Shown: positions 19,194-39,124 of the stretch, piece by piece | Position numbering within the stretch: the first letter of the stretch is position 1 | Layout of the letters: every line of letters starts with the position of its first letter | Assembly: GCA_046094825.1 (NCBI GenBank) | Contig: JBJTIF010000078.1 | Coordinates: forward strand, 1-53,112 | Reading direction: 5' to 3' | DNA from: Actinomycetota bacterium | GTDB taxonomy: Bacteria; Actinomycetota; UBA4738; HRBIN12 | Length of the DNA stretch: 53,112 nucleotides | Position numbers and translations under genes: made by a program | The notes under the pieces: generated by a model | Database searches by the model: none | The model's input: the letters and a program-made list of their open reading frames with translations, nothing else | What the model was told of the DNA's origin: nothing

Positions 19194-19442
19194 GTGCCGA
19201 AATCGAAGACCCGCAAGCGCTCGACGCGCAGGCCCTACCTCCCGGCGGAGCAGCCCGTGAAGCGGCCGCGCTCGAGCCCCTCCTGGTACGGCTACCTCGT
19301 GCTCGGCTTCATCCTCGTGGGCGTCGCGGTCATCGTGCTCAACTACATGGGGATCATGCCCGGCGGCACGGAGCCGACGTGGCTCTGGGTCGGCCTCGGC
19401 GGCATCGGCATCGGGTTCGTCGCCGCGACGCAGTGGCGCTAG
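19194..19442 (+). CDS. crgA: Cell division membrane protein CrgA
   Basis: MPKSKTRK start, SPSWY, two TMs, C-terminal ATQWR; TAGCAT 6 nt upstream. Confidence 0.9.
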   Translation: MPKSKTRKRSTRRPYLPAEQPVKRPRSSPSWYGYLVLGFILVGVAVIVLNYMGIMPGGTEPTWLWVGLGGIGIGFVAATQWR

Positions 19443-29013: not shown

Positions 29014-29265
29014 TCAGGCGAGGCCGGCTGCGCGGAGCTTCGCGGTGAGCTCCTCGTCGGAGGGCTCGGTGAGATGGCTCCCGTCCGGGAAGACGATCAC
29101 CGGGATCCGCTGCTCACCACCGTTGTAGCGGAGGATCGCCTCGATCGCGTCCGGATCGTTGTCGGAGTCCACCTCGACGTACGCGACGCCGAGCGCCGCG
29201 AAGACCTTCTTCGCACGGCGACAGTCGCCGCACCAGTCGGCCCCGTACATCGTGACCTCGGCCAT
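29014..29265 (-). CDS. Mycoredoxin/NrdH-like glutaredoxin
   Basis: MYGADWCGDCRRAK, NGGEQRIPVIVFPDGS.L.EPS. Confidence 0.88.
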   Translation of the reverse strand: MAEVTMYGADWCGDCRRAKKVFAALGVAYVEVDSDNDPDAIEAILRYNGGEQRIPVIVFPDGSHLTEPSDEELTAKLRAAGLA

Positions 29266-29288
29266 CCCTGCCTCCCGTCCCGGCTTCC

Positions 29289-29306
29289 CCTACCCCCGGG
29301 GGTAGG
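29289..29306. promoter_or_regulatory. CsoR/CstR-type operator
   Basis: Perfect 18-bp palindrome CCTACCCCCGGGGGTAGG (TAC-C/G tract-GTA) between divergent redoxin and csoR-family genes; TACCAT -10 at 29309-29314. Confidence 0.8.
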
Positions 29307-29353
29307 CGTACCATCCGGCGCGGGCGCCGCCGGCGCCCACCGGGAGGGTACCC

Positions 29354-29617
29354 ATGGAACCGGACCCGCGGATCGTCGAGGAGGCGCTCGTGCGCCTCGC
29401 GAAGGTGGAGGGGCAGGTGGCCGGGGTCGCGCGGATGCTCCGCGAGGGCCGCGATTGCCGGGAGGTCATCGCGCAGCTGAGCGCCGCGGGACGGGCGCTC
29501 GACCGCGTCGGCTTCCGGCTCGTCGCGAGCGGGCTCCGACGCTGCGTCACGGAGGGCGGCGCGGACGCCGAGGCCTCCGCCGAGGAGCTCGAACGGCTCT
29601 TCCTGCAGATCGGATAG
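29354..29617 (+). CDS. CsoR/RcnR-family repressor, CstR-like (probable persulfide sensor)
   Basis: RLAKVEGQVAGVARM...DCREVIAQLSA...SGLRRC; both Cys present, Cu-ligand His replaced by Gly. Confidence 0.85.
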   Translation: MEPDPRIVEEALVRLAKVEGQVAGVARMLREGRDCREVIAQLSAAGRALDRVGFRLVASGLRRCVTEGGADAEASAEELERLFLQIG

Positions 29618-29625
29618 GAGGCGAC

Positions 29626-31017
29626 ATGGCGATCGACTACGAGGTCTTCGTCACGGCGGGGCTCGGGGACAACACGTTCCTCGTGGCCTCCGGCGACGAG
29701 GCGGTGCTCGTCGACCCGCAGCGCGACGCGTGGCGGTTCGTCGCCGCCGCCGAGCGCCGGGGGCTCCGGATCCGGGGCGTGCTCGAGACGCACGTCCACA
29801 ACGACTACCTCTCCGGCGCGCACGAGGTGCGCGCCGCGACGGGCGCCGACATCCTCGCGCCGGCGAAGGGCGGGTACGCGTTCCCCCACACGCCGTCCGA
29901 GGAGGGCGTCGAGATCGCGATCGGCGACCTGCTCCTGCGTGCGTGGGACACGCCCGGCCACACGTACGAGCACATCGCGTGGGCGGCGTTCCGACCGGGC
30001 GATGCGGGCGACGCGACGCCGCTCGCGGTCTTCTCCGGCGGGTCGCTCCTCGTCGGGAGCGCCGGCCGCACCGACCTCCTCGGCCCCGACCACACCGCGG
30101 CCCTCACCGACCTCCAGTTCGCGACGATGGCCCGGTACCGGGCGCTCCCCGCCGCCGTCGACCTCCTGCCGACGCACGGCGCAGGGTCGTTCTGCGTCTC
30201 GACGCTCCCGACCGCTGCGCGTGTGTCGACGATCGGCGAGGAGCTCGGTCGCAACGCCGCGCTCACCGCGAGCGATGGCGCGACGTTCGCCGAGCAGCAG
30301 CTCACCGGGGTCTTGGAGTACGCGCGGTACTACGCGGCGATGGCACCGCGCAACCGCACGGGTCCCCCCGTCCTCGGCTCGACGCCTCGACCGCCGCGCC
30401 TGGACGGCGCGGCGGTCGCGGAGCACCGGAGGCGGGGCACGGTGATCGTCGATGCGCGGGACCGCGAGTCCTTCGCCGCGGCCCACATCCCCGGCGCGCT
30501 GAACGTCGAGCTGAACGAGGGGTTCTGCACGTACGTCGGCTGGGTCACGCCGTTCGACTGCGAGCACGTCCTCGTCCTCCCGGAGAGCGACGACGCGGAG
30601 CGCGAGGCGATCGACCAGCTCATCCGGATCGGGTACGACCGGACGGTCGGGATCCTCGAGGGCGGCATGGCGTCGTGGGCCGGGGAGACGCGCTCGTACC
30701 CGATCGGCACGACGAAGGAGCTCCGCGAGCGGCTCACCGACGGCGAACCGACGACGGTCCTCGACGTCCGGCAGCCCGGCGAGTGGGAGAGCGAGGGCGT
30801 CGTGCCGGGGAGCATCCGGATCTTCGTCGGCGACCTCCCCGAGCGCCTCGACGAACTCGACCCTGGCGCGGAGCACTGGATCTTCTGCACGAACGGCCAC
30901 CGGGCGTCGCTCGCCGCGAGCCTCCTCGACGCCCGCGGGATCCGCGCGCGGCTCATCGCGAAGAGCGGCGTCCTCGGGCTGCTCGACCACCTCGAGCCGC
31001 TCGGCGCGGCGCGGTAG
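29626..31017 (+). CDS. MBL-fold persulfide dioxygenase-like / double rhodanese fusion (CstB-like)
   Basis: ETHVHNDY, TPGHTYEH, PTHGAGSFC, pseudo-rhodanese (DAR...HIPGA), C-terminal rhodanese FCTNGHRA; AGGAGG SD. Confidence 0.88.
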   Translation: MAIDYEVFVTAGLGDNTFLVASGDEAVLVDPQRDAWRFVAAAERRGLRIRGVLETHVHNDYLSGAHEVRAATGADILAPAKGGYAFPHTPSEEGVEIAIGDLLLRAWDTPGHTYEHIAWAAFRPGDAGDATPLAVFSGGSLLVGSAGRTDLLGPDHTAALTDLQFATMARYRALPAAVDLLPTHGAGSFCVSTLPTAARVSTIGEELGRNAALTASDGATFAEQQLTGVLEYARYYAAMAPRNRTGPPVLGSTPRPPRLDGAAVAEHRRRGTVIVDARDRESFAAAHIPGALNVELNEGFCTYVGWVTPFDCEHVLVLPESDDAEREAIDQLIRIGYDRTVGILEGGMASWAGETRSYPIGTTKELRERLTDGEPTTVLDVRQPGEWESEGVVPGSIRIFVGDLPERLDELDPGAEHWIFCTNGHRASLAASLLDARGIRARLIAKSGVLGLLDHLEPLGAAR

Positions 31018-32607
31018 TCAGCGTCCGCGGCGCGAGCGCGGCGCGCCGCCCTCGCGCCGCGGGGCGATCGCCCGTCGGCGGAGGTTGCTCGCGTCCTCGG
31101 CGACCAACGTGACGCCCGGCGCCGCGGCGAGCGTCCGCTCGACGACCTTCGCGGCCTGCGGCGGGACGTCGACGACCTCGACCTCGATGCCCGCCGCCTG
31201 CGCGCCCGTCACGAGGTCGCGGAGCGCGAGCGCGCCGGTGAGATCGACGCGACCGAGCCCACCGAGGTGGAGGACGAGCCGCCGGATGCCGGGGTGGCGC
31301 GCGACGAGGGCGTTCACCTCATCCTGCAGCGCCGGCGCGGACGCGAAGAAGAGCACGCCGTGCGGCTCGACGTGGAGGACGTCGCCCTCGACGCGTTCGT
31401 CGAGCGGGACCCGGACCTCGCGCCAGAGGTGGGCGGCGATGCCCACCCCGATGCCGAGGAGCACGCCCTCGTCGACGCGCGGCGAGAGCGCGATCGTCGC
31501 CGCGAACGTCGTCACCGCGACCCAGAACTGCGCCCGGGCGAGCCGCCGGTACTCCCGGAACGGCGCGGGGTTCAGGAGCGAGACGACCGCCGCGATGACG
31601 ATCCCCGACAGGACCGCGCGCGGGAGCGGCGCGATCGCGTCGGCGAACGGGAGGAACGCGAGGACGACGACCGCCGTGATGACGCCGCTCCAGCGGGTCT
31701 CCGCGCCGGCGAGGCGGTTCAGCGCGCTCCGGCTGAACGAACTGCCGACCGGGTAGGCGCGGAAGACCCCCGCGACGAGGTTCGCGAACCCCTGGCTCAC
31801 GAACTCGCGGTCGGGCTCCCACGCGGTGCGGTCGGCCGCGGCGTAGTGCCGTGCGATCGCCGCGGGTTCGGCGAAGCCCACGATCGCGATCGTGAGCGCC
31901 GGGAGGAGGAGCTGACCGGCGAACGACCACGGGAGGTCGAGCGACGGGAGCGGCAGGCCGGAGGCCACCGCGCCGACCGTCGGCACGTCGATCCCACCGA
32001 CCTCGACCGCGAGGATCCCGCCGACGACGGCGATGAGGACGCCGGGGAAGAGCGGATGGAGCCGTCGTCCGGCGAGCACGAGCGCGACGGTCGCGAGGCC
32101 GAACGCGAGCGCGGGGAGGTTCCACGAGCCCGGGGCGAGCGTCGCGCGCGCCGCCGAGGTAATCGGGTGCGCCGCATCCCCGGTCGTCCCGAGGACCGCC
32201 GGCAGCTGCGTCGCGACGATGAGCACGCCGGCGGCGGCGGTGAACCCCGCGACGACCGGCTGCGACATCAGGTAGGCGACGCGACCGATCCGCAGGAACC
32301 CGAAGAGCGCGCGGATGATCCCGACCTCGAGCGCGAGGAGCGCGGCGAGGGCGACGTACGGCGGTGCGAGGGGCATCGCGAGCCCCGAGAGCGCCCCGAG
32401 GGTGAGGAGCGAGGTGAGCGCGGTCGGCCCGGACTGGAGAGCGACGGAGGACGAGGTGAACGCCGTGATGAGCGGCGCGAGCGCCGCGGCGTAGATGCCC
32501 TGCTCGGGCGGCAGCCCCGCGAGCGCCGCGAGCCCGATCGCCTGCGGCACGATGAGCATCGCGACCGAGATCCCGGCGACGAGGTCGCCGGGTCTCGGCA
32601 GCGCGAT
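31018..32607 (-). CDS. SulP/SLC26 anion transporter with STAS domain (start uncertain)
   Basis: DLVAG...IVPQAIG, SGPTA, SSFSRSA, STAS LFFA...VDLTG; first canonical ATG (32559) falls inside TM1; ATC 32607 or CTG 32622 are candidates. Confidence 0.85.
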   Translation of the reverse strand: MALPRPGDLVAGISVAMLIVPQAIGLAALAGLPPEQGIYAAALAPLITAFTSSSVALQSGPTALTSLLTLGALSGLAMPLAPPYVALAALLALEVGIIRALFGFLRIGRVAYLMSQPVVAGFTAAAGVLIVATQLPAVLGTTGDAAHPITSAARATLAPGSWNLPALAFGLATVALVLAGRRLHPLFPGVLIAVVGGILAVEVGGIDVPTVGAVASGLPLPSLDLPWSFAGQLLLPALTIAIVGFAEPAAIARHYAAADRTAWEPDREFVSQGFANLVAGVFRAYPVGSSFSRSALNRLAGAETRWSGVITAVVVLAFLPFADAIAPLPRAVLSGIVIAAVVSLLNPAPFREYRRLARAQFWVAVTTFAATIALSPRVDEGVLLGIGVGIAAHLWREVRVPLDERVEGDVLHVEPHGVLFFASAPALQDEVNALVARHPGIRRLVLHLGGLGRVDLTGALALRDLVTGAQAAGIEVEVVDVPPQAAKVVERTLAAAPGVTLVAEDASNLRRRAIAPRREGGAPRSRRGR

Positions 32608-32623
32608 GCGCCGACCCTCCAGG

Positions 32624-32860
32624 TCAGGCGCCCTTGCGGACGAGGAACATGAGCGCGCCGTCCTCCTCGCCGGACGACACGATCTCGTTGCCCGTGTCGT
32701 CGGCCCAGGCGGGGAAGTCCGTGAGCGACCCCTTGTCGGTCGCGAGGACCTTCAGCACCTGGCCCGCCTGCATCCCCTTGATCGCCTGGTTCGTCTTCAC
32801 GATCGGGATCGGGCACTGGAAGCCCCGCATGTCGAGCGTCTGATCCACGTGGTCCGTCAT
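32624..32860 (-). CDS. tusA: Sulfur carrier TusA
   Basis: LDMRGFQCPIPIVKT (CPxP), ATDKGS..DFPAW; GAGGGAGG SD. Confidence 0.92.
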   Translation of the reverse strand: MTDHVDQTLDMRGFQCPIPIVKTNQAIKGMQAGQVLKVLATDKGSLTDFPAWADDTGNEIVSSGEEDGALMFLVRKGA

Positions 32861-32870
32861 CGTCCCTCCC

Positions 32871-33431
32871 TCAGATGAACAGCGTGACGTTGGCCTTGCG
32901 CGCCTCGGAGAGGAACGCCGCCGCGCCGCCGTACTCGACGCCGTCGATGAAGTCCTTCTCCGTGTACCCGAACACGTCCATCGTCATCGTGCAGCCGATG
33001 AGCCGAACGCCGCTCTCGAGCGCGAGCGCCCGGAGCTCCTCGACGTCGGCGACGCCCTTCTTCTTGAACTTCTGCTTCATCATCCACGTCGCGCCCGGCA
33101 CCATGCCCGGGATCACCGTCGCGAGCTGGGGCATCGGGATCGGCATCGGCATCGCCGGGTTGCCGGTCGGACCGACCCGCACCGTGCGCCCGAAGTTCTT
33201 CTTCAGGATGTTCAGGCCGTAGAACGTGAAGAAGACCGAGCACTCCATGCCCGCGGCCGCCGCGGCGTTCGCGAGGATCAGGGGCGGGTACGCCCAGTCG
33301 AGCGTGCCCTTCGACGCGATGATCGCGGCCTTCTTCGACCCGGGATCCTTCGCCTTCGCGAGCTCGTCGCGGACGATCGAACGGATCTGCTCCTCGGTGA
33401 GACCGGCGAGCGAGCGTTCATCCTGCAACAT
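32871..33431 (-). CDS. DsrE2-type sulfur carrier (DsrE/DrsE_2 family)
   Basis: KGTLDWAYPP, FFTFYGL, GNPAMPMP, GCTMTMD, FIDGVEYGGAAAF. Confidence 0.9.
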   Translation of the reverse strand: MLQDERSLAGLTEEQIRSIVRDELAKAKDPGSKKAAIIASKGTLDWAYPPLILANAAAAAGMECSVFFTFYGLNILKKNFGRTVRVGPTGNPAMPMPIPMPQLATVIPGMVPGATWMMKQKFKKKGVADVEELRALALESGVRLIGCTMTMDVFGYTEKDFIDGVEYGGAAAFLSEARKANVTLFI

Positions 33432-34275
33432 GCGCCGTCACCTCCTCGGTGATCGTCCGCGCGGTGCGTTCCGCGCGGGCGAGCCACCATCCTGCCACGG
33501 CGTCCGCGTCGACCGGACCGACGCCGTGGATGACCGCCTGTCGGGCGGCCTCCTCGCCGAGCCACGCGACCGTGGCCCGGAGGTCCTGCTCCGCCATCGC
33601 CCGCAGGGCGTAGGCGCGCTCACCCATGCGGATGCCGACGCCGACGGCGCGCGCGCCACGGACGACGTCGGTGCGGGTGAGGACGATGCCGGTGCGCACC
33701 GGGGCGGTCGCCACGGCGAGCACGCCGGCGGCGTCGGCCGGCGGCGGGGCCGCGGCGCGGAGCGCGACCGGCAGGAGGTCGGGGCGGCCGAGGTCGTCGG
33801 CCTCGGCGGCGAGCGCCGCGCGGACGGCGCCGGCCCACGCGACCTGGTGGTCGGTGCCGACGCGCTCGACGGCCGCGAGGAACGGACCGGTCCACGCGAG
33901 GAGGTGCTCCCACAGGAGCGCGCACCGCGCCTCGCGGCGCAGGAGCCGCTTCGCGGGATCGTCCTCGCGGTCCTCGAGATCGGCGAGCGACGCGAGGAGG
34001 CCGAGGAGCGACGCGAGGTGGTCGGGTTCGGCGGGCGGGACGAGGCCGAGCGCGCGCCAGAACCCCGCGATGCGGTCGCGCGCCTCCCCGCCGAGCATCC
34101 CCTCGTCGCCGAGGTAGACGGAGGCGAAGGGGTAGACGTCGAAGAGGAACGTCGCGGTCTCGTCGGCGGGGTCGCCGGGCGCCGGGAGCTCGAGCGCCTC
34201 GGTGAGCCGCGCCGTCTCGGGACCGGGACGCTCGCAGAGCGCGCCGAGCCCGCGGAGGAGGTCGGCGCGGCTCAC
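33418..34275 (-). CDS. TorD/DmsD-family molybdoenzyme maturation chaperone
   Basis: YPFASVYL, EPDHL, EHLLAW; GTGA overlap with Mo subunit. Confidence 0.85.
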   Translation of the reverse strand: MSRADLLRGLGALCERPGPETARLTEALELPAPGDPADETATFLFDVYPFASVYLGDEGMLGGEARDRIAGFWRALGLVPPAEPDHLASLLGLLASLADLEDREDDPAKRLLRREARCALLWEHLLAWTGPFLAAVERVGTDHQVAWAGAVRAALAAEADDLGRPDLLPVALRAAAPPPADAAGVLAVATAPVRTGIVLTRTDVVRGARAVGVGIRMGERAYALRAMAEQDLRATVAWLGEEAARQAVIHGVGPVDADAVAGWWLARAERTARTITEEVTAHVAG

Positions 34276-37205
34276 CGAGGCTCCGGGATCGCGAAGACCT
34301 CGCGCGCGGGCTTCAGCGGACGCATGAACCAGTACGGACGTCGCGTGCCGTCGGGGGTGAAGCCCCGGACGTCGCGCGTCTTCTCGAGCCACTCGCGGTA
34401 GATCGCGTGCGAGCGCTCGGTGTCGACGTGGATGTCGCCGTACGCCTCGTCGGGTCGCGCGCGACGCACGCGGACGGCCTGGTGCCAGCAGTGCTGGCCG
34501 GAGATCGGGTCGGGGTGCACCGGGAACGTGAGGTTCTGGTGGACGCCGACATCGGTCCACCAGATGCGGGCGGTGTCGGGGTCGCTCGAGGCGAACGGGC
34601 GGGTCCCGGAGACGCGACGCATCCCCCAGCGCTCCCCGGCGCGATCGAGGTCGACCGTGGCCATGAGCTGGCGCTGCCCGTCCTCCGCGCCGCGGACCTT
34701 CCACCGGCCCATGTGGTGGCTGCACGCGACGACGCCGGGGCGGATGCCCTCGGTGACCCACGCCTTCACGACCATCGAGCCGGAGTGCGTCTCGACGGCG
34801 ACGAGGTCGCCGGTGCGCACGCCGACGCGCGCGGCATCGCTCGGGTGGAGCCAGAGCGGGTTCGTGTGCGCGATCTCGTCGAGCCACTTCGCGTTCGCGC
34901 TGCGGGTGTGGATCTGCACGGGGAGGCGGAACGTCGAGATGAGCGGCATCTCGCCGTCCTGGAGGGCCGACGGGTGGACGTGGCTCCGGATGTAGCCGGG
35001 GAGCACGTGCTCACGCCAGCCCCACGCGGCCATCGTGCCGGACCAGAACTCGAGCTTGCCGGAGGGCGTCGGGAACCCGCGGAGCACCTCACCGTCGACG
35101 CGCACGCCGACGGGACGACGCCCGGCGTCGTCGGGGTCGGGCGCGCCCATCGGCACGACGTTCGGATCGTCGGGCTTCGGCGTCCGCGTGTACACGCGAC
35201 CGAGGGGGGACTCCGCGACGTCCTCGAGCGCGGCGACGTCGACGGGTTCCTCGAAGATGCGGCCCATCCCCTTGCGGATCTCGAATGCCCCGTAGCGACG
35301 CATGTACCCGAGCGGCGTGAGGCCTTCCGCGGCGGCGGCCTCGGGGAGCCCCGGCACCGAGTGCTCGAACATCCAGCCGTAGTACTCGTCGACGGTGAGC
35401 TTCGTGCCGGGCTGCGCCTTCGACTCGTGGAACCTCCGGATACCGAGCGCGCCGTCGGGGTCGATCCGCCACGAGAGCTCGGTCCAGAACTCGTTCTCCT
35501 CCCAGACCTCGCCGGGGTTCGCCTCGCGGGTGTCGGTGACCGGGTGACCGAGCCGCTCGCGCGCGGTGCGCAGGACCGGCTGGCGGAACCCGATCCACTG
35601 CCCGTCGTACTGCTCGTACGAGTGCGTGTCGTGCCGCTCGGACCCGAGCCCCATCGGGAGCACGTAGTCCGCGAAGTGCGAGGTCTCCGACCACGTCGGG
35701 GTGAGCGCGACGTGGAGCCCGACCTTCGCGGGGTCCGTGAGGACCTCGATCCACGTGAACCCATCGGGGTTCGTCCAGACGGGGTTGTAGACGCGGCTGA
35801 AGTACACCTCGAGCCGACCGCGGCCCTCCTTCAGGAAGTGGGGGAGCAGGTACGAGAGCTCGTTGAGCGCGAGCGGGTACTCGAGTGGCCACGTGAGCTC
35901 GTTCCACGTGTGCGGGTGCGGTGGCGTGTGGATCGGCTTCGGCACGAACTTGTTCCAGGCGTTCGGGTAGAGCCCACCCGGCGTCGCGACCGCACCGAGG
36001 AGGGCGTTCAGGAGGAAGAGCGTGCGCGAGACCTGCCAGCCGCCGAGGTTGCCGGCCGCGGCCGAGCGCCACGAGTGCGTCGAGAACCGCGTCCCGGCAC
36101 CGGCGACCGCCTCCGCGACGCGCGCGATCTGCGCCTCGTCGACGCCGGACTCCGCGGCCGCGAAGGCGAACGTGTAGGCGGCGTAGAGCCCGCGGAGGAG
36201 TTCCTCGAATCGCTCGAAGGTGCCCGGCCCGCCGGCGTCCTCGTTCGCGAGGTACTCCTCCCAGTTCCACCAGCGGCGGACGAACTCCCGGTCGTACGCG
36301 CCGGTCGCGATCACGTGGTTCGCGATCGCGAGGAGGATCGCGGCCTCCGAACCCGGCCACGGCGACACCCACTCGTCCGCGTGCGTCGCGCTGTTCGACA
36401 GGCGCGTGTCGAAGACGATGAGCTTCGCGCCCGCGCCCTTCGCGTCCATGATCCGCTGCGCGTGCGGGTTGAAGTAGTGGCCCGCCTCGAGGTGCGACGA
36501 GACGAGGAGGATCACGTCGGCGTTCGCGTGGTCGGGGCTCGGGCGGTCGATGCCGGTCCACAGGTGGTAGCCCATCCGGGCGCCGGACGAGCAGACGTTC
36601 GTGTGGGAGTTGTGCCCGTCGACGCCCCACGACGCGAGGACGCGCTCGGTGAACCCGTCCTCGCCGGGTCGGCCCACGTGGTACATGACCTCGTTCGGTC
36701 GGCCCTCGGTGATCGCGGCACGGATCCGCGCGGCGATGTCGTCGAGCGCCTCGTCCCACGTGATCTGCTCCCAGCGACCGCCGCCGCGCTCCCCCGCACG
36801 ACGCAGCGGGTGGAGGATGCGGTCGGGGTCGGTGACCTGGTTCATCGTCGCCGGCCCCTTCGCGCAGTTGCGCCCGCGCGAGCCGGGGTGCTCGGGGTTG
36901 CCCTCGAACTTGCGGACGGTGAGCGTCTCGGGGTCGACGTACGCGAGGAGCCCGCACGCGGACTCGCAGTTGAAGCACGTCGTCGGGACGAGCATCGAGC
37001 GCTGCTCGACGCGACGCGGCCAGGCCTTCGAGTCGAGCTCCACCCAGTCGTCCCAGCGCTCCTTCGGCGGGAACGCCGCGAGGTGGATCCGCGAGGCGCC
37101 GGGGTAGAACGTCTCGCCACGCGCCTCGGTGTCGCGGCGCGCGGCGCTCACGCGCTCGGCGGCGCGCTCGACGTCGTCGCGGCGACGGGTGCGGTCGGCG
37201 CTCAT
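34272..37205 (-). CDS. DMSO-reductase-family bis-MGD oxidoreductase catalytic subunit (Psr/Sre/Soe-like), no Tat signal
   Basis: FS0 motif TTCFNCESACG...NCAKG, WDEALD, NSHTNVCSS (candidate Cys ligand), SETSHFADYVLP, TPSGKLE, HTRS; ~977 aa. Confidence 0.92.
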   Translation of the reverse strand: MSADRTRRRDDVERAAERVSAARRDTEARGETFYPGASRIHLAAFPPKERWDDWVELDSKAWPRRVEQRSMLVPTTCFNCESACGLLAYVDPETLTVRKFEGNPEHPGSRGRNCAKGPATMNQVTDPDRILHPLRRAGERGGGRWEQITWDEALDDIAARIRAAITEGRPNEVMYHVGRPGEDGFTERVLASWGVDGHNSHTNVCSSGARMGYHLWTGIDRPSPDHANADVILLVSSHLEAGHYFNPHAQRIMDAKGAGAKLIVFDTRLSNSATHADEWVSPWPGSEAAILLAIANHVIATGAYDREFVRRWWNWEEYLANEDAGGPGTFERFEELLRGLYAAYTFAFAAAESGVDEAQIARVAEAVAGAGTRFSTHSWRSAAAGNLGGWQVSRTLFLLNALLGAVATPGGLYPNAWNKFVPKPIHTPPHPHTWNELTWPLEYPLALNELSYLLPHFLKEGRGRLEVYFSRVYNPVWTNPDGFTWIEVLTDPAKVGLHVALTPTWSETSHFADYVLPMGLGSERHDTHSYEQYDGQWIGFRQPVLRTARERLGHPVTDTREANPGEVWEENEFWTELSWRIDPDGALGIRRFHESKAQPGTKLTVDEYYGWMFEHSVPGLPEAAAAEGLTPLGYMRRYGAFEIRKGMGRIFEEPVDVAALEDVAESPLGRVYTRTPKPDDPNVVPMGAPDPDDAGRRPVGVRVDGEVLRGFPTPSGKLEFWSGTMAAWGWREHVLPGYIRSHVHPSALQDGEMPLISTFRLPVQIHTRSANAKWLDEIAHTNPLWLHPSDAARVGVRTGDLVAVETHSGSMVVKAWVTEGIRPGVVACSHHMGRWKVRGAEDGQRQLMATVDLDRAGERWGMRRVSGTRPFASSDPDTARIWWTDVGVHQNLTFPVHPDPISGQHCWHQAVRVRRARPDEAYGDIHVDTERSHAIYREWLEKTRDVRGFTPDGTRRPYWFMRPLKPAREVFAIPEPR

Positions 37206-38782
37206 GCGAGCGGCACCGACTGGCCGGCCTGGATGAACGCGTGCTCGTGGGCGAACAGCCCGACGAGGGCGGTGATCGCGGCGCCCGCGGCGCCGAGGCC
37301 GGCCGGGACCGGCAGGACGAGGAAGCCGAGCGCCGCGAGCGCGGCGACGACGCCGAGGCGGAACCACCACCGGTACCGCCCGCCGGTCATCTCGTGCGAC
37401 GCGAGCCGCGCGTGCGCGGTCGGATGCGGGAGCGTGACCTCGCCGAGGACGAACGCGAGGTGCGCGACGAGACCGACCGCGAGGGCGAGGGCGGAGGGAC
37501 CGATGGGCTCGCCGGTGGCCGCCGCGACGAGGATCGTCGCCGCCCCGCCGGCGAGGACCGCTTGGACCGCGATGTGCGGGGCGAGGAGCGGGCTCTGCCA
37601 GAGGTCCCGCGCCTTCGACTTCGCGAAGAGGAACGCCGTGTACACCGCGGCCATGAGCGCGAGCGGCCCGCCGGCGATCGCGAGCGGCAGGAGGAGGTCG
37701 TCCCGCCCGAGGATCGTCGCGAGGACGTGCGCCGATGCGACCGCGCCGTAGCCGAGGATGATGAACCCGCCGCGGACGAGCCAGCTCCGCCACTGCGGGC
37801 GCGTGAAGATCATGTAGAAGCGGAGCGGATGCTCGAGGTCCCAGATGAGGACTCCGCCGGTGATCGCGAGGAACGCGAGCCCGAGGACGGGGCCGATCCA
37901 CGTCCAGAGCGGGCTCGACGCGTCGAGCCGGCCGAGGAGGACGAGGAGGAGCGGGACGAGGTACGCGCCCGCGGCGACGTTCTTCGTCCAGGTGTAGAGC
38001 GCGACCCGCCAGTCCCACGGGATCGAGTGGGCGACGTCGTACGCGAGGACCGCCGCCGCCGAGGAGTTCCGACGTTCGCCCGCGGGCATCCCCGAGGTGA
38101 CGGCGTGGGTCCCGGAGGGCTGCTCGGACCACATGAAGATGCCCCCCGTCGGTCGCTCGGCGGCGAGCGGGTCGAGCGTGAACTGCGTCGCCCCCGTGTA
38201 GAAGAGCTTCGGATGCGTCTCCTTCTCCGGACGCCGGACGGCGACGGGCTCGCGCTGCGCGATCTGCGCCGCGAACGAATCCGGGTCGTGGAGGTCACCG
38301 ACGAGGATCGCGTTCACCGGACACACCGTGACGCAGGCGGGCTCGAGCCCCTGGTCGATCCGGTGCGCGCAGAGGTTGCACTTCTCCGCGGAGTGGTCCT
38401 CGGGGTTGATGAAGATCGCGTCGTACGGGCACGCGGCGATGCACGCCTTGCACCCGATGCAGATCGACTTGTCGAAGTCGACGATGCCGTCGTCGCGACG
38501 GTGCATCGCCGAGGTGGGGCACGCGGCGACGCACGGCGCATCCTCGCACTGGTTGCAGCGCGTCACCTGGTACGCGCGGCGCGCCTGGGGGAAGACGCCG
38601 ACGTCGACGTACTTCACGTACGTGCGCGTGACCCCGAGCGGCACCTCGTTCTCCGCCTTGCACGCGGTCGTGCACGCATGGCACCCGATGCACCGCGACT
38701 GATCGAGGACCTTGATCCACTTCGGGGGCGCGGACGGCCCGGACCGCGAGGGTGCGACCGGCGGGTCGAGCTCCGTGACCAT
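37202..38782 (-). CDS. Fused 4x[4Fe-4S] electron-transfer subunit and NrfD/PsrC membrane anchor
   Basis: CIGCHACTTAC, CNQCEDAPC..ACP, CIGCKACIAACP, KCNLC...CVTVCP; then DLEHPLRF...SWLVRG, YTAFL and ~8 TMs. Confidence 0.92.
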   Translation of the reverse strand: MVTELDPPVAPSRSGPSAPPKWIKVLDQSRCIGCHACTTACKAENEVPLGVTRTYVKYVDVGVFPQARRAYQVTRCNQCEDAPCVAACPTSAMHRRDDGIVDFDKSICIGCKACIAACPYDAIFINPEDHSAEKCNLCAHRIDQGLEPACVTVCPVNAILVGDLHDPDSFAAQIAQREPVAVRRPEKETHPKLFYTGATQFTLDPLAAERPTGGIFMWSEQPSGTHAVTSGMPAGERRNSSAAAVLAYDVAHSIPWDWRVALYTWTKNVAAGAYLVPLLLVLLGRLDASSPLWTWIGPVLGLAFLAITGGVLIWDLEHPLRFYMIFTRPQWRSWLVRGGFIILGYGAVASAHVLATILGRDDLLLPLAIAGGPLALMAAVYTAFLFAKSKARDLWQSPLLAPHIAVQAVLAGGAATILVAAATGEPIGPSALALAVGLVAHLAFVLGEVTLPHPTAHARLASHEMTGGRYRWWFRLGVVAALAALGFLVLPVPAGLGAAGAAITALVGLFAHEHAFIQAGQSVPLA

Positions 38783-39087
38783 CAGCCGACCGCCCGTGCG
38801 GCGATGCTCCGGCACATGGCGTCGCAGAGCCCCTCGATCGTCGGGTCGGCGATCGCGTAGCGGACGGACCGACCGTCGCGCCGACGGCGCACGACGCCGC
38901 CGTCCTGGAGGCGGGAGAGGTGCTGCGAGACGTTCGGCAGGGAGGTTCCGACGAGGCGCGCGAGCTCGCCGACCGTGGCCCCGTCGTGCTCGAGGAGCGC
39001 GCGCACGACCCGCAGACGCGTCGGGTCGGACAGGAGCGCGAACCTGCGGGCCGCCTCGTCGAGGACGGCGTCGGGGACCCCGTGCAT
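38782..39087 (-). CDS. ArsR/SmtB-family repressor with C-terminal CxxxC
   Basis: FALLSDPTRL, NVSQHL, RRRDGRSVRY, LCDAMC; TGATG overlap with next gene. Confidence 0.9.
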   Translation of the reverse strand: MHGVPDAVLDEAARRFALLSDPTRLRVVRALLEHDGATVGELARLVGTSLPNVSQHLSRLQDGGVVRRRRDGRSVRYAIADPTIEGLCDAMCRSIAARAVG

Positions 39088-39094
39088 GCGCACG

Positions 39095-39124
39095 ACCCTA
39101 CGCCTCGTTTCAGCGGTCGGTCAA
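39095..39124 (-). promoter_or_regulatory. Sigma70-type promoter of the arsR-Mo enzyme-sulfur relay operon
   Basis: TTGACC(39119-39124)-18 nt-TAGGGT(39095-39100)-7 nt-ATG. Confidence 0.7.

Follow-up and report, generated by a model that had tools for sequence, protein, structure and literature searches.

The stretch of DNA considered here (the window) covers positions 1 to 53,112 of contig JBJTIF010000078.1 from an Actinomycetota bacterium (assembly GCA_046094825.1, lineage HRBIN12). Between about 29.0 and 39.1 kb it carries two sets of genes that may together dispose of sulfane sulfur and sulfite in the cytoplasm. The larger is an operon built around a membrane-anchored enzyme with a molybdenum-bis(pyranopterin guanine dinucleotide) (Mo-bisPGD) cofactor; the smaller encodes a CstR-like regulator and a persulfide dioxygenase (PDO). 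Because the window is about 73% G+C, reading frames were chosen by G+C content at the third codon position (GC3), which is 0.90-0.99 in the accepted frames. The ten genes and their order are as first described, and Pfam backs each domain call. They are listed here in the order of the operon and then of the second unit, together with a candidate operator.

38782-39093, minus strand: regulator of the ArsR/SmtB family, first gene of the operon (NF033788, 82.1 bits against a cut-off of 55; HTH_20, 6.4e-16)
37202-38815, or from the ATG at 38782 (the likely start, 526 amino acids), minus strand: fusion of a domain for four [4Fe-4S] clusters with an NrfD anchor (Fer4_11, 2.2e-23; NrfD, 3.8e-14)
34272-37205, minus strand: Mo-bisPGD catalytic subunit of 977 amino acids and 109.7 kDa (Molybdop_Fe4S4, Molybdopterin, Molydop_binding)
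33418-34275, minus strand: chaperone of TorD/NarJ type with an additional C-terminal part (Nitrate_red_del, 2.3e-10)
32871-33431, minus strand: sulfur carrier of DsrE2 type (DrsE_2, 2e-51; NF047629, 210.3 bits, barely at the NCBIfam cut-off of 210)
32624-32860, minus strand: TusA sulfur carrier (PF01206, 4.1e-22), with Cys16 within Cys-Pro-x-Pro
31018-32559 from the first ATG, or to 32622 with a CTG start, minus strand: SulP-family anion transporter with a STAS domain (Sulfate_transp, 6.7e-68; STAS, 4.9e-10)
29626-31017, plus strand: CstB-like PDO of metallo-β-lactamase (MBL) fold followed by two rhodanese domains (Lactamase_B, 1.4e-8; Rhodanese, 4.7e-21 over two stretches)
29354-29617, plus strand: CstR-like regulator of the CsoR family (PF02583, 8.6e-20, 71.4 bits)
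29289-29306, no strand: candidate CstR operator, a perfect 18-bp palindrome, CCTACCCCC/GGGGGTAGG (inverted-repeat search)
29014-29265, minus strand: protein of glutaredoxin fold, mycoredoxin-like, with a CGDC motif (Glutaredoxin, 4.9e-12; TIGR02200, 73.3 bits against a cut-off of 89.5)

The genes of the operon are closely packed. The arsR and FeS-NrfD genes overlap by one nucleotide (TGATG), the ATG at 38782 lying on the arsR stop codon. Four nucleotides are shared by the FeS-NrfD and Mo genes (ATGA) and likewise by the Mo and TorD genes (GTGA), and 14 by the TorD and DsrE2 genes; DsrE2 and TusA are 10 nt apart. The tight coupling originally described, with gaps of at most about 16 nt, holds from arsR through tusA, but it reaches sulP only with a non-canonical start. 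The gap is 64 nt with ATG, GTG or TTG starts and 1-16 nt with CTG at 32622 or ATC at 32607. One of the latter two is probably used, to judge from the reading frame, since it continues without a stop ahead of the first ATG and there encodes a motif typical of SulP N-termini. In the second unit 8 nt separate the CstR-like gene from the PDO fusion. The ends of the sulP and PDO genes abut at 31018/31017, so the two units are convergent and not head-to-head as first stated. The glutaredoxin-fold gene does lie divergent from cstR as proposed; mycoredoxin-like is the better wording for it, because its TIGR02200 score is under the cut-off.

In the catalytic subunit Cys77, Cys80, Cys84 and Cys114 (a CxxCxxxC...C motif) are the cysteines of the FeS cluster FS0, and Cys205 is the putative Mo ligand, aligning with the ligand-cysteine region of ArrA and PsrA. 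In an alignment of 80 sequences (the window protein and those of 79 other loci), the four FS0 cysteines, Cys205 and Ser206 are invariant (80/80), and 325 of the 977 columns are near-invariant, with at most one exception. Residues ~18-55, before the FeS motif, are hydrophilic and strongly conserved across phyla (…ARGETFYPG.SR.HLA.FPP.ERWD…). The N-terminus of NarG is the docking site of NarJ; the conserved N-terminus of the Mo subunit may serve the TorD-like chaperone in the same way.

N-terminal hydrophobic segments and signals for twin-arginine translocation (Tat) are absent from both the Mo subunit and the FeS-NrfD protein. The hydrophilic N-terminus of the Mo subunit takes the place of the twin-arginine signal of periplasmic reductases; signals of the RRxFLK type are found on the Azoarcus-type proteins and on most other distant relatives in the tree set described below. 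The FeS domain of the fusion contains 16 cysteines, and the anchor has 8 predicted helices of the NrfD/PsrC quinone type. Counted per loop of the anchor, Lys and Arg residues number 4, 3 and 4 on the FeS-domain side and 1, 0 and 0 on the opposite side. These loop charges fit a topology with the N-terminus inside, and the Tat-less, cytoplasm-facing Mo enzyme of the original prediction is borne out. The covalent tie between the FeS domain and the anchor's N-terminus means that the catalytic module as a whole goes with it, and by these sequence criteria the catalytic and FeS modules are cytoplasmic. The fusion provides direct sequence evidence for the inverted NrfD orientation that, in the available text of Calisto and Pereira (PMC8076601), is merely postulated for SoeC. 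Three NrfD proteins that stand alone (P0440, P0484 and P0499, 292-300 amino acids) are encoded on long contigs and share 57-58% identity with the anchor half, so split forms of the two subunits also exist in the family.

This enzyme is very widespread. All 8000 candidates scored in a homologue search with the Mo subunit were accepted, so there are at least 8000 relatives; the best 120 of these matches show 74-88% identity over at least 97% of the length and have generic names throughout. A scan of 1.84 billion cluster representatives gave 1081 matches at E<=1e-30, and in a species-genome collection 596 of 600 candidate stretches encode relatives. The best 80 of the 596 (69-88% identity) are from Actinomycetota, Chloroflexota, Acidobacteriota, Gemmatimonadota, Binatia, Myxococcota, Dormibacterota, Eremiobacterota-type and other metagenome-assembled genomes (MAGs). 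Over the family as a whole, identity is 55-88% across many phyla. Carriers make up 39 of the 401 genomes sampled in the window's phylum (30 of 248 genera) and 108 of 401 in the phylum of another locus, L038; one genome in the tally, G525, bears an unpublished flag. Within the host family 2 of 22 sampled genomes have the enzyme, a patchiness that suggests gain or loss. It is also found on plasmids, e.g., the Thermomicrobium roseum megaplasmid (63% identity), pRHL3 of Rhodococcus jostii RHA1 (59%) and several haloarchaeal plasmids (51-54%). The FeS-NrfD and Mo genes bear the locus tags RHA1_RS43840/43835 on pRHL3 and TRD_RS12035/12030 in T. roseum.

No specific NCBIfam model fits the Mo subunit, and a model for SoeA is not among the NCBIfam matches. 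The top match is PhsA, with 197.2 bits against a cut-off of 694; the TtrA model gives 92.4 bits against 1750 and the formate dehydrogenase models 89-146 bits against 666-1400, and the FeS part matches the TtrB model with 173.5 bits. The best match by sequence in the PDB is ArrA, and PsrA is also among the top solved structures. PsrABC of Thermus thermophilus (PDB 2VPZ family) and PhsABC share the same three cofactor modules with the window's enzyme (matches at E 8.5e-30 and 197 bits). They differ from it in being Tat-exported and periplasm-facing, identity is only ~25%, and PhsA falls outside the window's clade in the tree.

That tree has 40 rows: the window protein, 11 of the 80 loci spread over phyla, four plasmid homologues (T. 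roseum, R. jostii RHA1, Natrinema and a Tat-type Azoarcus protein), 18 further proteins (17 full-length ones out of 150 listed representatives and cluster member P0274) and six references (PhsA, TtrA, ArxA, DmsA, NarG and FdnG). It comes from a quick search, with support from the Shimodaira-Hasegawa-like approximate likelihood ratio test (SH-aLRT) only. The Tat-less family lies inside a clade of 22 rows with 100% support and a long stem, which also holds a smaller group of long, mostly Tat-bearing proteins. The T. roseum (63% identity) and haloarchaeal (53% identity) relatives fall in this clade. A phylogeny had been proposed with the original prediction as a check; as run, with six references, it places all six outside the 22-row clade, and SoeA, PsrA, SreA and PSRLC3 are not among the rows. 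With respect to the non-sulfur references the outcome agrees with the prediction, as the enzyme does not group with ArxA, DmsA, NarG or FdnG. When homologues were sought with three queries (the Mo subunit, the divergent representative P0122, and the NrfD part by itself), the matches had generic names and none was named SoeA. Ten cluster representatives and the matches in the ESM Atlas likewise have generic names and no SoeA among them, and the named enzymes from the plasmid collection are PhsA, TtrA, ArxA, NasA and one from Thioclava that is unrelated, with no SoeA.

On pAZKH of Azoarcus sp. KH32C the Tat-bearing relative (33% identity) is encoded in the order FeS, NrfD, Mo, TorD, and the locus holds further FeS and hypothetical genes. 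Next to it are genes for a PhnD-like binding protein and for a histidine kinase with a sigma-54 regulator. This set of regulators resembles that beside arxA in another locus, L089.

The model and structure matches could be taken to mean that the enzyme is an inverted Psr, Phs or Ttr, i.e., a reductase facing the cytoplasm, in which menaquinol would reduce sulfane sulfur (polysulfide or protein persulfide), thiosulfate or tetrathionate. Sulfane-sulfur stress would be lowered and sulfide released. The nearest models and structures (PhsA, TtrB for the FeS part, ArrA, PsrA) are indeed those of reductases, and the sulfane-sulfur carriers DsrE2 and TusA are encoded in the same operon and near the Mo gene in at least 15 sampled genomes. 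We nevertheless think such a reductase unlikely. Every named model stays far under its cut-off, there is no grouping with PhsA or TtrA, and many carrier genomes are without DsrE2. The PDO encoded next to the operon depends on O2, the organism has a haem-copper oxidase, and sulfide made beside a persulfide-oxidising unit would enter a futile cycle. The sulfite/sulfate potential is far below that of menaquinone, while the reduction of polysulfide or thiosulfate by menaquinol is uphill.

A substrate without sulfur has also to be considered: formate, arsenite or arsenate, selenate, or an organic molecule. The first gene of the operon encodes a regulator of the ArsR family, the best PDB match is ArrA, some database names are formate dehydrogenase, and the sulfur neighbours discussed below are missing at most loci. 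Furthermore, a complex that is possibly identical (CT0494 of Chlorobaculum tepidum) has been tentatively named formate:quinone oxidoreductase, FqoABC, by Calisto and Pereira in the available text of their survey (PMC8076601). The signature of a formate dehydrogenase is lacking here, as Cys205-Ser206 (80/80) stands where solved FdhA has Cys-His. The replacement of the Cys/Sec-His pair of formate dehydrogenases by Cys-Ser disfavours the FqoABC name for this family. The models for formate dehydrogenase, ArrA and selenate reductase are all far under their cut-offs, the enzyme stands apart from FdnG, ArxA, DmsA and NarG in the tree, and the accessory neighbours that recur are sulfur genes, not ars or formate genes. 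A non-sulfur substrate is therefore improbable in our view.

The neighbours of the Mo gene were counted over the 80 loci, 42 of which have at least 5 kb on both sides. The FeS-NrfD fusion is upstream of the Mo gene in 73 of the 80, and the seven that miss it have less than 1 kb of upstream sequence. A TorD-like gene is found in 59, almost always directly after the Mo gene. The commonest accessory neighbours are ArsR (19/80), PDO-rhodanese and DsrE2 (18/80 each), TusA (15/80) and SulP (12/80); a CstR-like gene is present in 2 of the 80. When all GC3-plausible open reading frames were clustered, no other real gene family turned up in more than 9 loci. Rhodanese, a class-V aminotransferase (cysteine-desulfurase fold) and an SBP_bac_11 ABC system recur in 5 loci each. 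The co-occurrence with sulfur genes that had been anticipated is thus seen, but the link is not obligatory.

Individual loci vary the arrangement. R. jostii pRHL3 has DsrE-TusA upstream of the enzyme genes, in T. roseum a CsoR-family regulator is directly 5' of the two enzyme genes, and one locus (L094) has the order Mo-DsrE2-TusA-PDO. In the sample from another phylum a close SulP gene stands directly after TorD in 9 of 30 loci, and SulP follows the enzyme also in loci without TusA and DsrE2. The surroundings on pRHL3 include three MBL-fold genes (PDO-type MBL genes among them), two ArsR genes, a thioredoxin and two DUF202 proteins; there and on a Natrinema plasmid the gene after the Mo subunit encodes an Mrp/NBP35 ATPase instead of a TorD-like protein. 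In a number of Pyrinomonadaceae and other Acidobacteriota loci (L018, L029, L030, L045, L046, L057, L074 and others) the FeS-NrfD and Mo genes do not overlap. They are ~1-3.5 kb apart, with genes for DUF1905/OmdA and other small proteins inserted between them.

The two sulfur carriers keep their active-site cysteines. Cys16 of TusA is invariant in 15/15 homologues and Cys147 of DsrE2 in 20/20. A hydropathy scan of DsrE2 finds one weak segment only, while the DsrE2 of Allochromatium vinosum is given two transmembrane helices in the text available to us (PMC12998232). The pair recalls the rhodanese-TusA-DsrE2 relay of sulfur oxidisers, with DsrE2 at the equivalog cut-off and the rhodanese supplied by the PDO fusion. 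It differs from that relay in its setting, as no dsrA was found and no sHdr set is evident in the genome, which is 90.75% complete.

This suggests another possibility, in which the Mo centre itself oxidises persulfide bound to TusA or DsrE2 to sulfite or sulfate without O2, with quinone as acceptor. Cytoplasmic oxidation of sulfane sulfur would then have a third system, in addition to rDsr and sHdr. It would conserve energy in aerobic heterotrophs, and lineages lacking the carriers would use low-molecular-weight persulfide. Within the operon the chaperone gene is followed by those for DsrE2 and TusA, whose active-site cysteines are invariant; the genome has no dsrA that could be found and no clear sHdr. 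In the 401-genome sample of the phylum, 21 carriers have a DsrE2 homologue; in at least 15 of them it is no more than 10 kb from the Mo gene, in 7 families and with varied order and orientation. Against this, the enzyme is at least 70% identical in lineages with no DsrE2 match (four carrier genomes from other phyla and one family, specified below). Such conservation in DsrE2-less lineages favours one common small substrate, and we regard oxidation of carrier-bound persulfide at the Mo centre as very unlikely, both as a reaction and as an energy-conserving pathway of this kind.

The unit that would produce sulfite lies next to the operon. The CstR-like protein has Cys35 and Cys64, with Gly60 four residues ahead of Cys64 at what we take to be the position of the copper-site His of CsoR; the model for the copper sensor RicR gives 47.9 bits against a cut-off of 175. 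In the PDO fusion the active-site Cys loop is in the second (last) of the two rhodanese domains. The glutaredoxin-like gene and cstR are separated by 88 nt, and the exact 18-bp palindrome lies in this interval. A motif TACCC-N(2-8)-GGGTA occurs ~90 nt upstream of a cstR-like gene in a Micromonospora MAG (L007) and also upstream of a PDO-type gene on R. jostii pRHL3 (L084). It is rare, only 4 loci having any such motif in 1.70 Mb of locus DNA. Matches to the 14-nt core at 3 mismatches are no rarer than chance in the window (2 against 1.44 expected), and weight is given only to the exact palindrome and its recurrence in other loci, which mark it as a candidate CstR operator. The region upstream of arsR gave no inverted repeat. 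In the C-terminal helix of the ArsR-type protein, Cys90 and Cys94 form a CxxxC pair, with both cysteines present in 12 of 19 clustered homologues; the BigR model matches it with 41.7 bits against a cut-off of 155.

In Streptomyces coelicolor, a PDO-rhodanese is under the control of a CsoR-like sensor that has two Cys and responds to sulfane sulfur, and the resulting sulfite is exported by TauE, according to the text available (PMC7533328). The window resembles this ScCsoR-ScPDO-TauE-rhodanese circuit and the cst operon of Staphylococcus aureus in that a two-Cys CsoR-family regulator adjoins a PDO-rhodanese fusion and a palindromic candidate operator is present. It differs from the S. coelicolor circuit in its outlet: no TauE was found in the window's genome, and a Mo enzyme and SulP adjoin instead. 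In comparison with cst, no sulfide:quinone oxidoreductase turned up in the window, although no search was aimed at it.

Two described enzymes come close to the one in the window. SoeABC of A. vinosum and Aquifex aeolicus, in the available text of PMC8076601, is a Mo-bisPGD enzyme with an N-terminal FeS cluster, a subunit with four [4Fe-4S] clusters and an 8-helix haem-less NrfD anchor; it has no Tat signals, and a cytoplasmic orientation has been proposed. The same text finds SoeC only in Proteobacteria, Clostridia and Aquificae. The window differs in having the second and third subunits as one protein of 526-537 amino acids, encoded 5' of the catalytic subunit, in contrast to separate soeA-soeB-soeC genes, and in a TorD-like gene after the catalytic one; the likeness drawn here is one of architecture. 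SoeA has a mass of ~109 kDa, very near that of the window's Mo subunit.

The second is the cytoplasmic PSR, or PSRLC3. For this enzyme the part of PMC3906813 available describes a Tat-less PsrA-like protein, a psrBC fusion and the order psrBC-psrA, and proposes sulfite oxidation. This type of layout occurs in green sulfur bacteria, Marine Group A, Marine Group II archaea, Haladaptatus and Caldilinea (PMC3906813; PMC6338057, as far as their available text goes). The window shares the Tat-less catalytic subunit, the psrBC fusion, the gene order and a wide, patchy spread that includes haloarchaea and Chloroflexi. This link is drawn from architecture and from haloarchaeal and Chloroflexota relatives of other genera, no PSRLC3 sequence being in the alignment. 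The DsrE2-TusA-SulP partners and the CstR/PDO neighbour seen at the window go unmentioned for PSRLC3 in the accessible portion of PMC3906813. The original prediction did not know the combination as a characterised system. As regards the layout of the enzyme, that is already in print (Wright 2013; PMC3906813, in the part available); as regards a DsrE2/TusA/SulP operon beside CstR/PDO, none was found described in the literature searched. In its gene content the locus joins a persulfide-handling CstR/PDO unit to a DsrE2-TusA-SulP operon with an inward-facing Mo enzyme.

The genome offers few other outlets for sulfite. The assembly is 1.53 Mb in 158 contigs; this is very small for 73% G+C, and its genus mates have 1.3-1.6 Mb. 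MoaA and a haem-copper oxidase are encoded. The original prediction saw no dsr or sox genes in the window, and the search of the genome agrees, with no dsrA and no soxB. A profile search of the same genome found no NIR_SIR sulfite reductase, no member of the phosphoadenosine or adenosine phosphosulfate (PAPS/APS) reductase family, no TauE and no AprA above the cut-off. The check for sHdr, by the CCG domain only, gave one protein with two CCG domains in a 693-amino-acid frame, too little to identify sHdr. With no sulfite reductase, PAPS/APS reductase or TauE, sulfite made by the PDO would have no other obvious sink, apart from one small Oxidored_molyb protein. For want of the two reductases, SulP is also unlikely to feed assimilatory sulfate reduction. 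Absences from a draft genome such as this are weak evidence.

The same absences fit a cell that cannot reduce sulfate and salvages thiosulfate. SulP would import thiosulfate or sulfite, TusA and DsrE2 would keep the sulfane sulfur for biosynthesis, and the Mo enzyme would only clear the leftover sulfite. In addition to the lack of sulfite reductase and PAPS/APS reductase in a genome of this size and completeness, sulP, tusA and dsrE2 are in one operon with the enzyme, and TusA-like proteins partner thiosulfate importers in other bacteria. However, SulP is, to our knowledge, not a known thiosulfate importer, and the NCBIfam model for YeeD/TsuB matches weakly (18.3 bits against a cut-off of 147.5). 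An ATP sulfurylase is encoded (PF01747, 342 bits; contig C72, 21421-22953, directly after a 79-amino-acid MoaD/ThiS-like gene), the absences carry little weight as just noted, and SulP follows the enzyme where TusA and DsrE2 are not found. Thiosulfate salvage is, in our view, a very unlikely explanation.

The disposal of sulfane sulfur by way of sulfite, with quinone-coupled oxidation to sulfate and export by SulP, is the function we assign to the locus with moderate confidence. What the enzyme acts on and in which direction, what SulP, TusA and DsrE2 do, and which signals the regulators sense, we infer from the gene content and arrangement as follows. The two convergent units would make up the route. 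The CstR-like repressor would sense persulfide, and the CstB-like PDO-rhodanese would oxidise it with O2 to sulfite (or thiosulfate). The membrane-anchored Mo-bisPGD enzyme, with cofactor inserted by TorD, would then oxidise sulfite to sulfate in the cytoplasm. The two electrons would pass through five FeS clusters to menaquinone at the NrfD domain and on to the aerobic chain, and SulP would export the sulfate. TusA and DsrE2 would bring sulfane sulfur as protein persulfides to the PDO-rhodanese; they would be accessory to the Mo enzyme, in some lineages only, and not required.

Several observations weigh against sulfite disposal. The top named models and structures are reductases (PhsA at 197 bits, far under 694; ArrA; PsrA). 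DsrE2, TusA or PDO is nearby in 15 of the 42 well-flanked loci, and none of them in the other 27. Four of five carrier genomes from other phyla (G001, G002, G004 and G005) have no DsrE2 match, and in one family (f16), sampled with 31 genomes, 11 have the Mo enzyme and none has DsrE2. DsrE2-like genes are mildly enriched in the sampled phylum (21 of 39 carriers against 133 of 362 non-carriers), in a comparison whose genomes are related and hence not independent of one another. CstB-type fusions may release thiosulfate rather than free sulfite. The ATP sulfurylase points to some activation of sulfate, so import by SulP is possible. The literature searched holds no assay, expression data or genetics for any member of the family, and there are no RNA runs among the runs recorded as holding this DNA.

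The question has a wider bearing. The Mo enzyme family is very common and generically named in databases. If it is a sulfite dehydrogenase, surveys that count canonical soeABC, sorAB and aprAB would under-report sulfite oxidation in soil and freshwater heterotrophs. Since cultured carriers exist (R. jostii RHA1 with pRHL3, and T. roseum with its megaplasmid), a test at the bench is feasible.

The genes flanking the locus encode TerC, MarR and MFS proteins, CrgA (19194-19442), an enolase-superfamily protein and SIS-domain proteins. None of these is sulfur-related, and the limits of the locus were set at ~29.0-39.1 kb for that reason. DNA of the window has been observed in freshwater metagenomes, where 7 runs from 2 studies contain at least half of the sampled words; the top runs may be the source sample.

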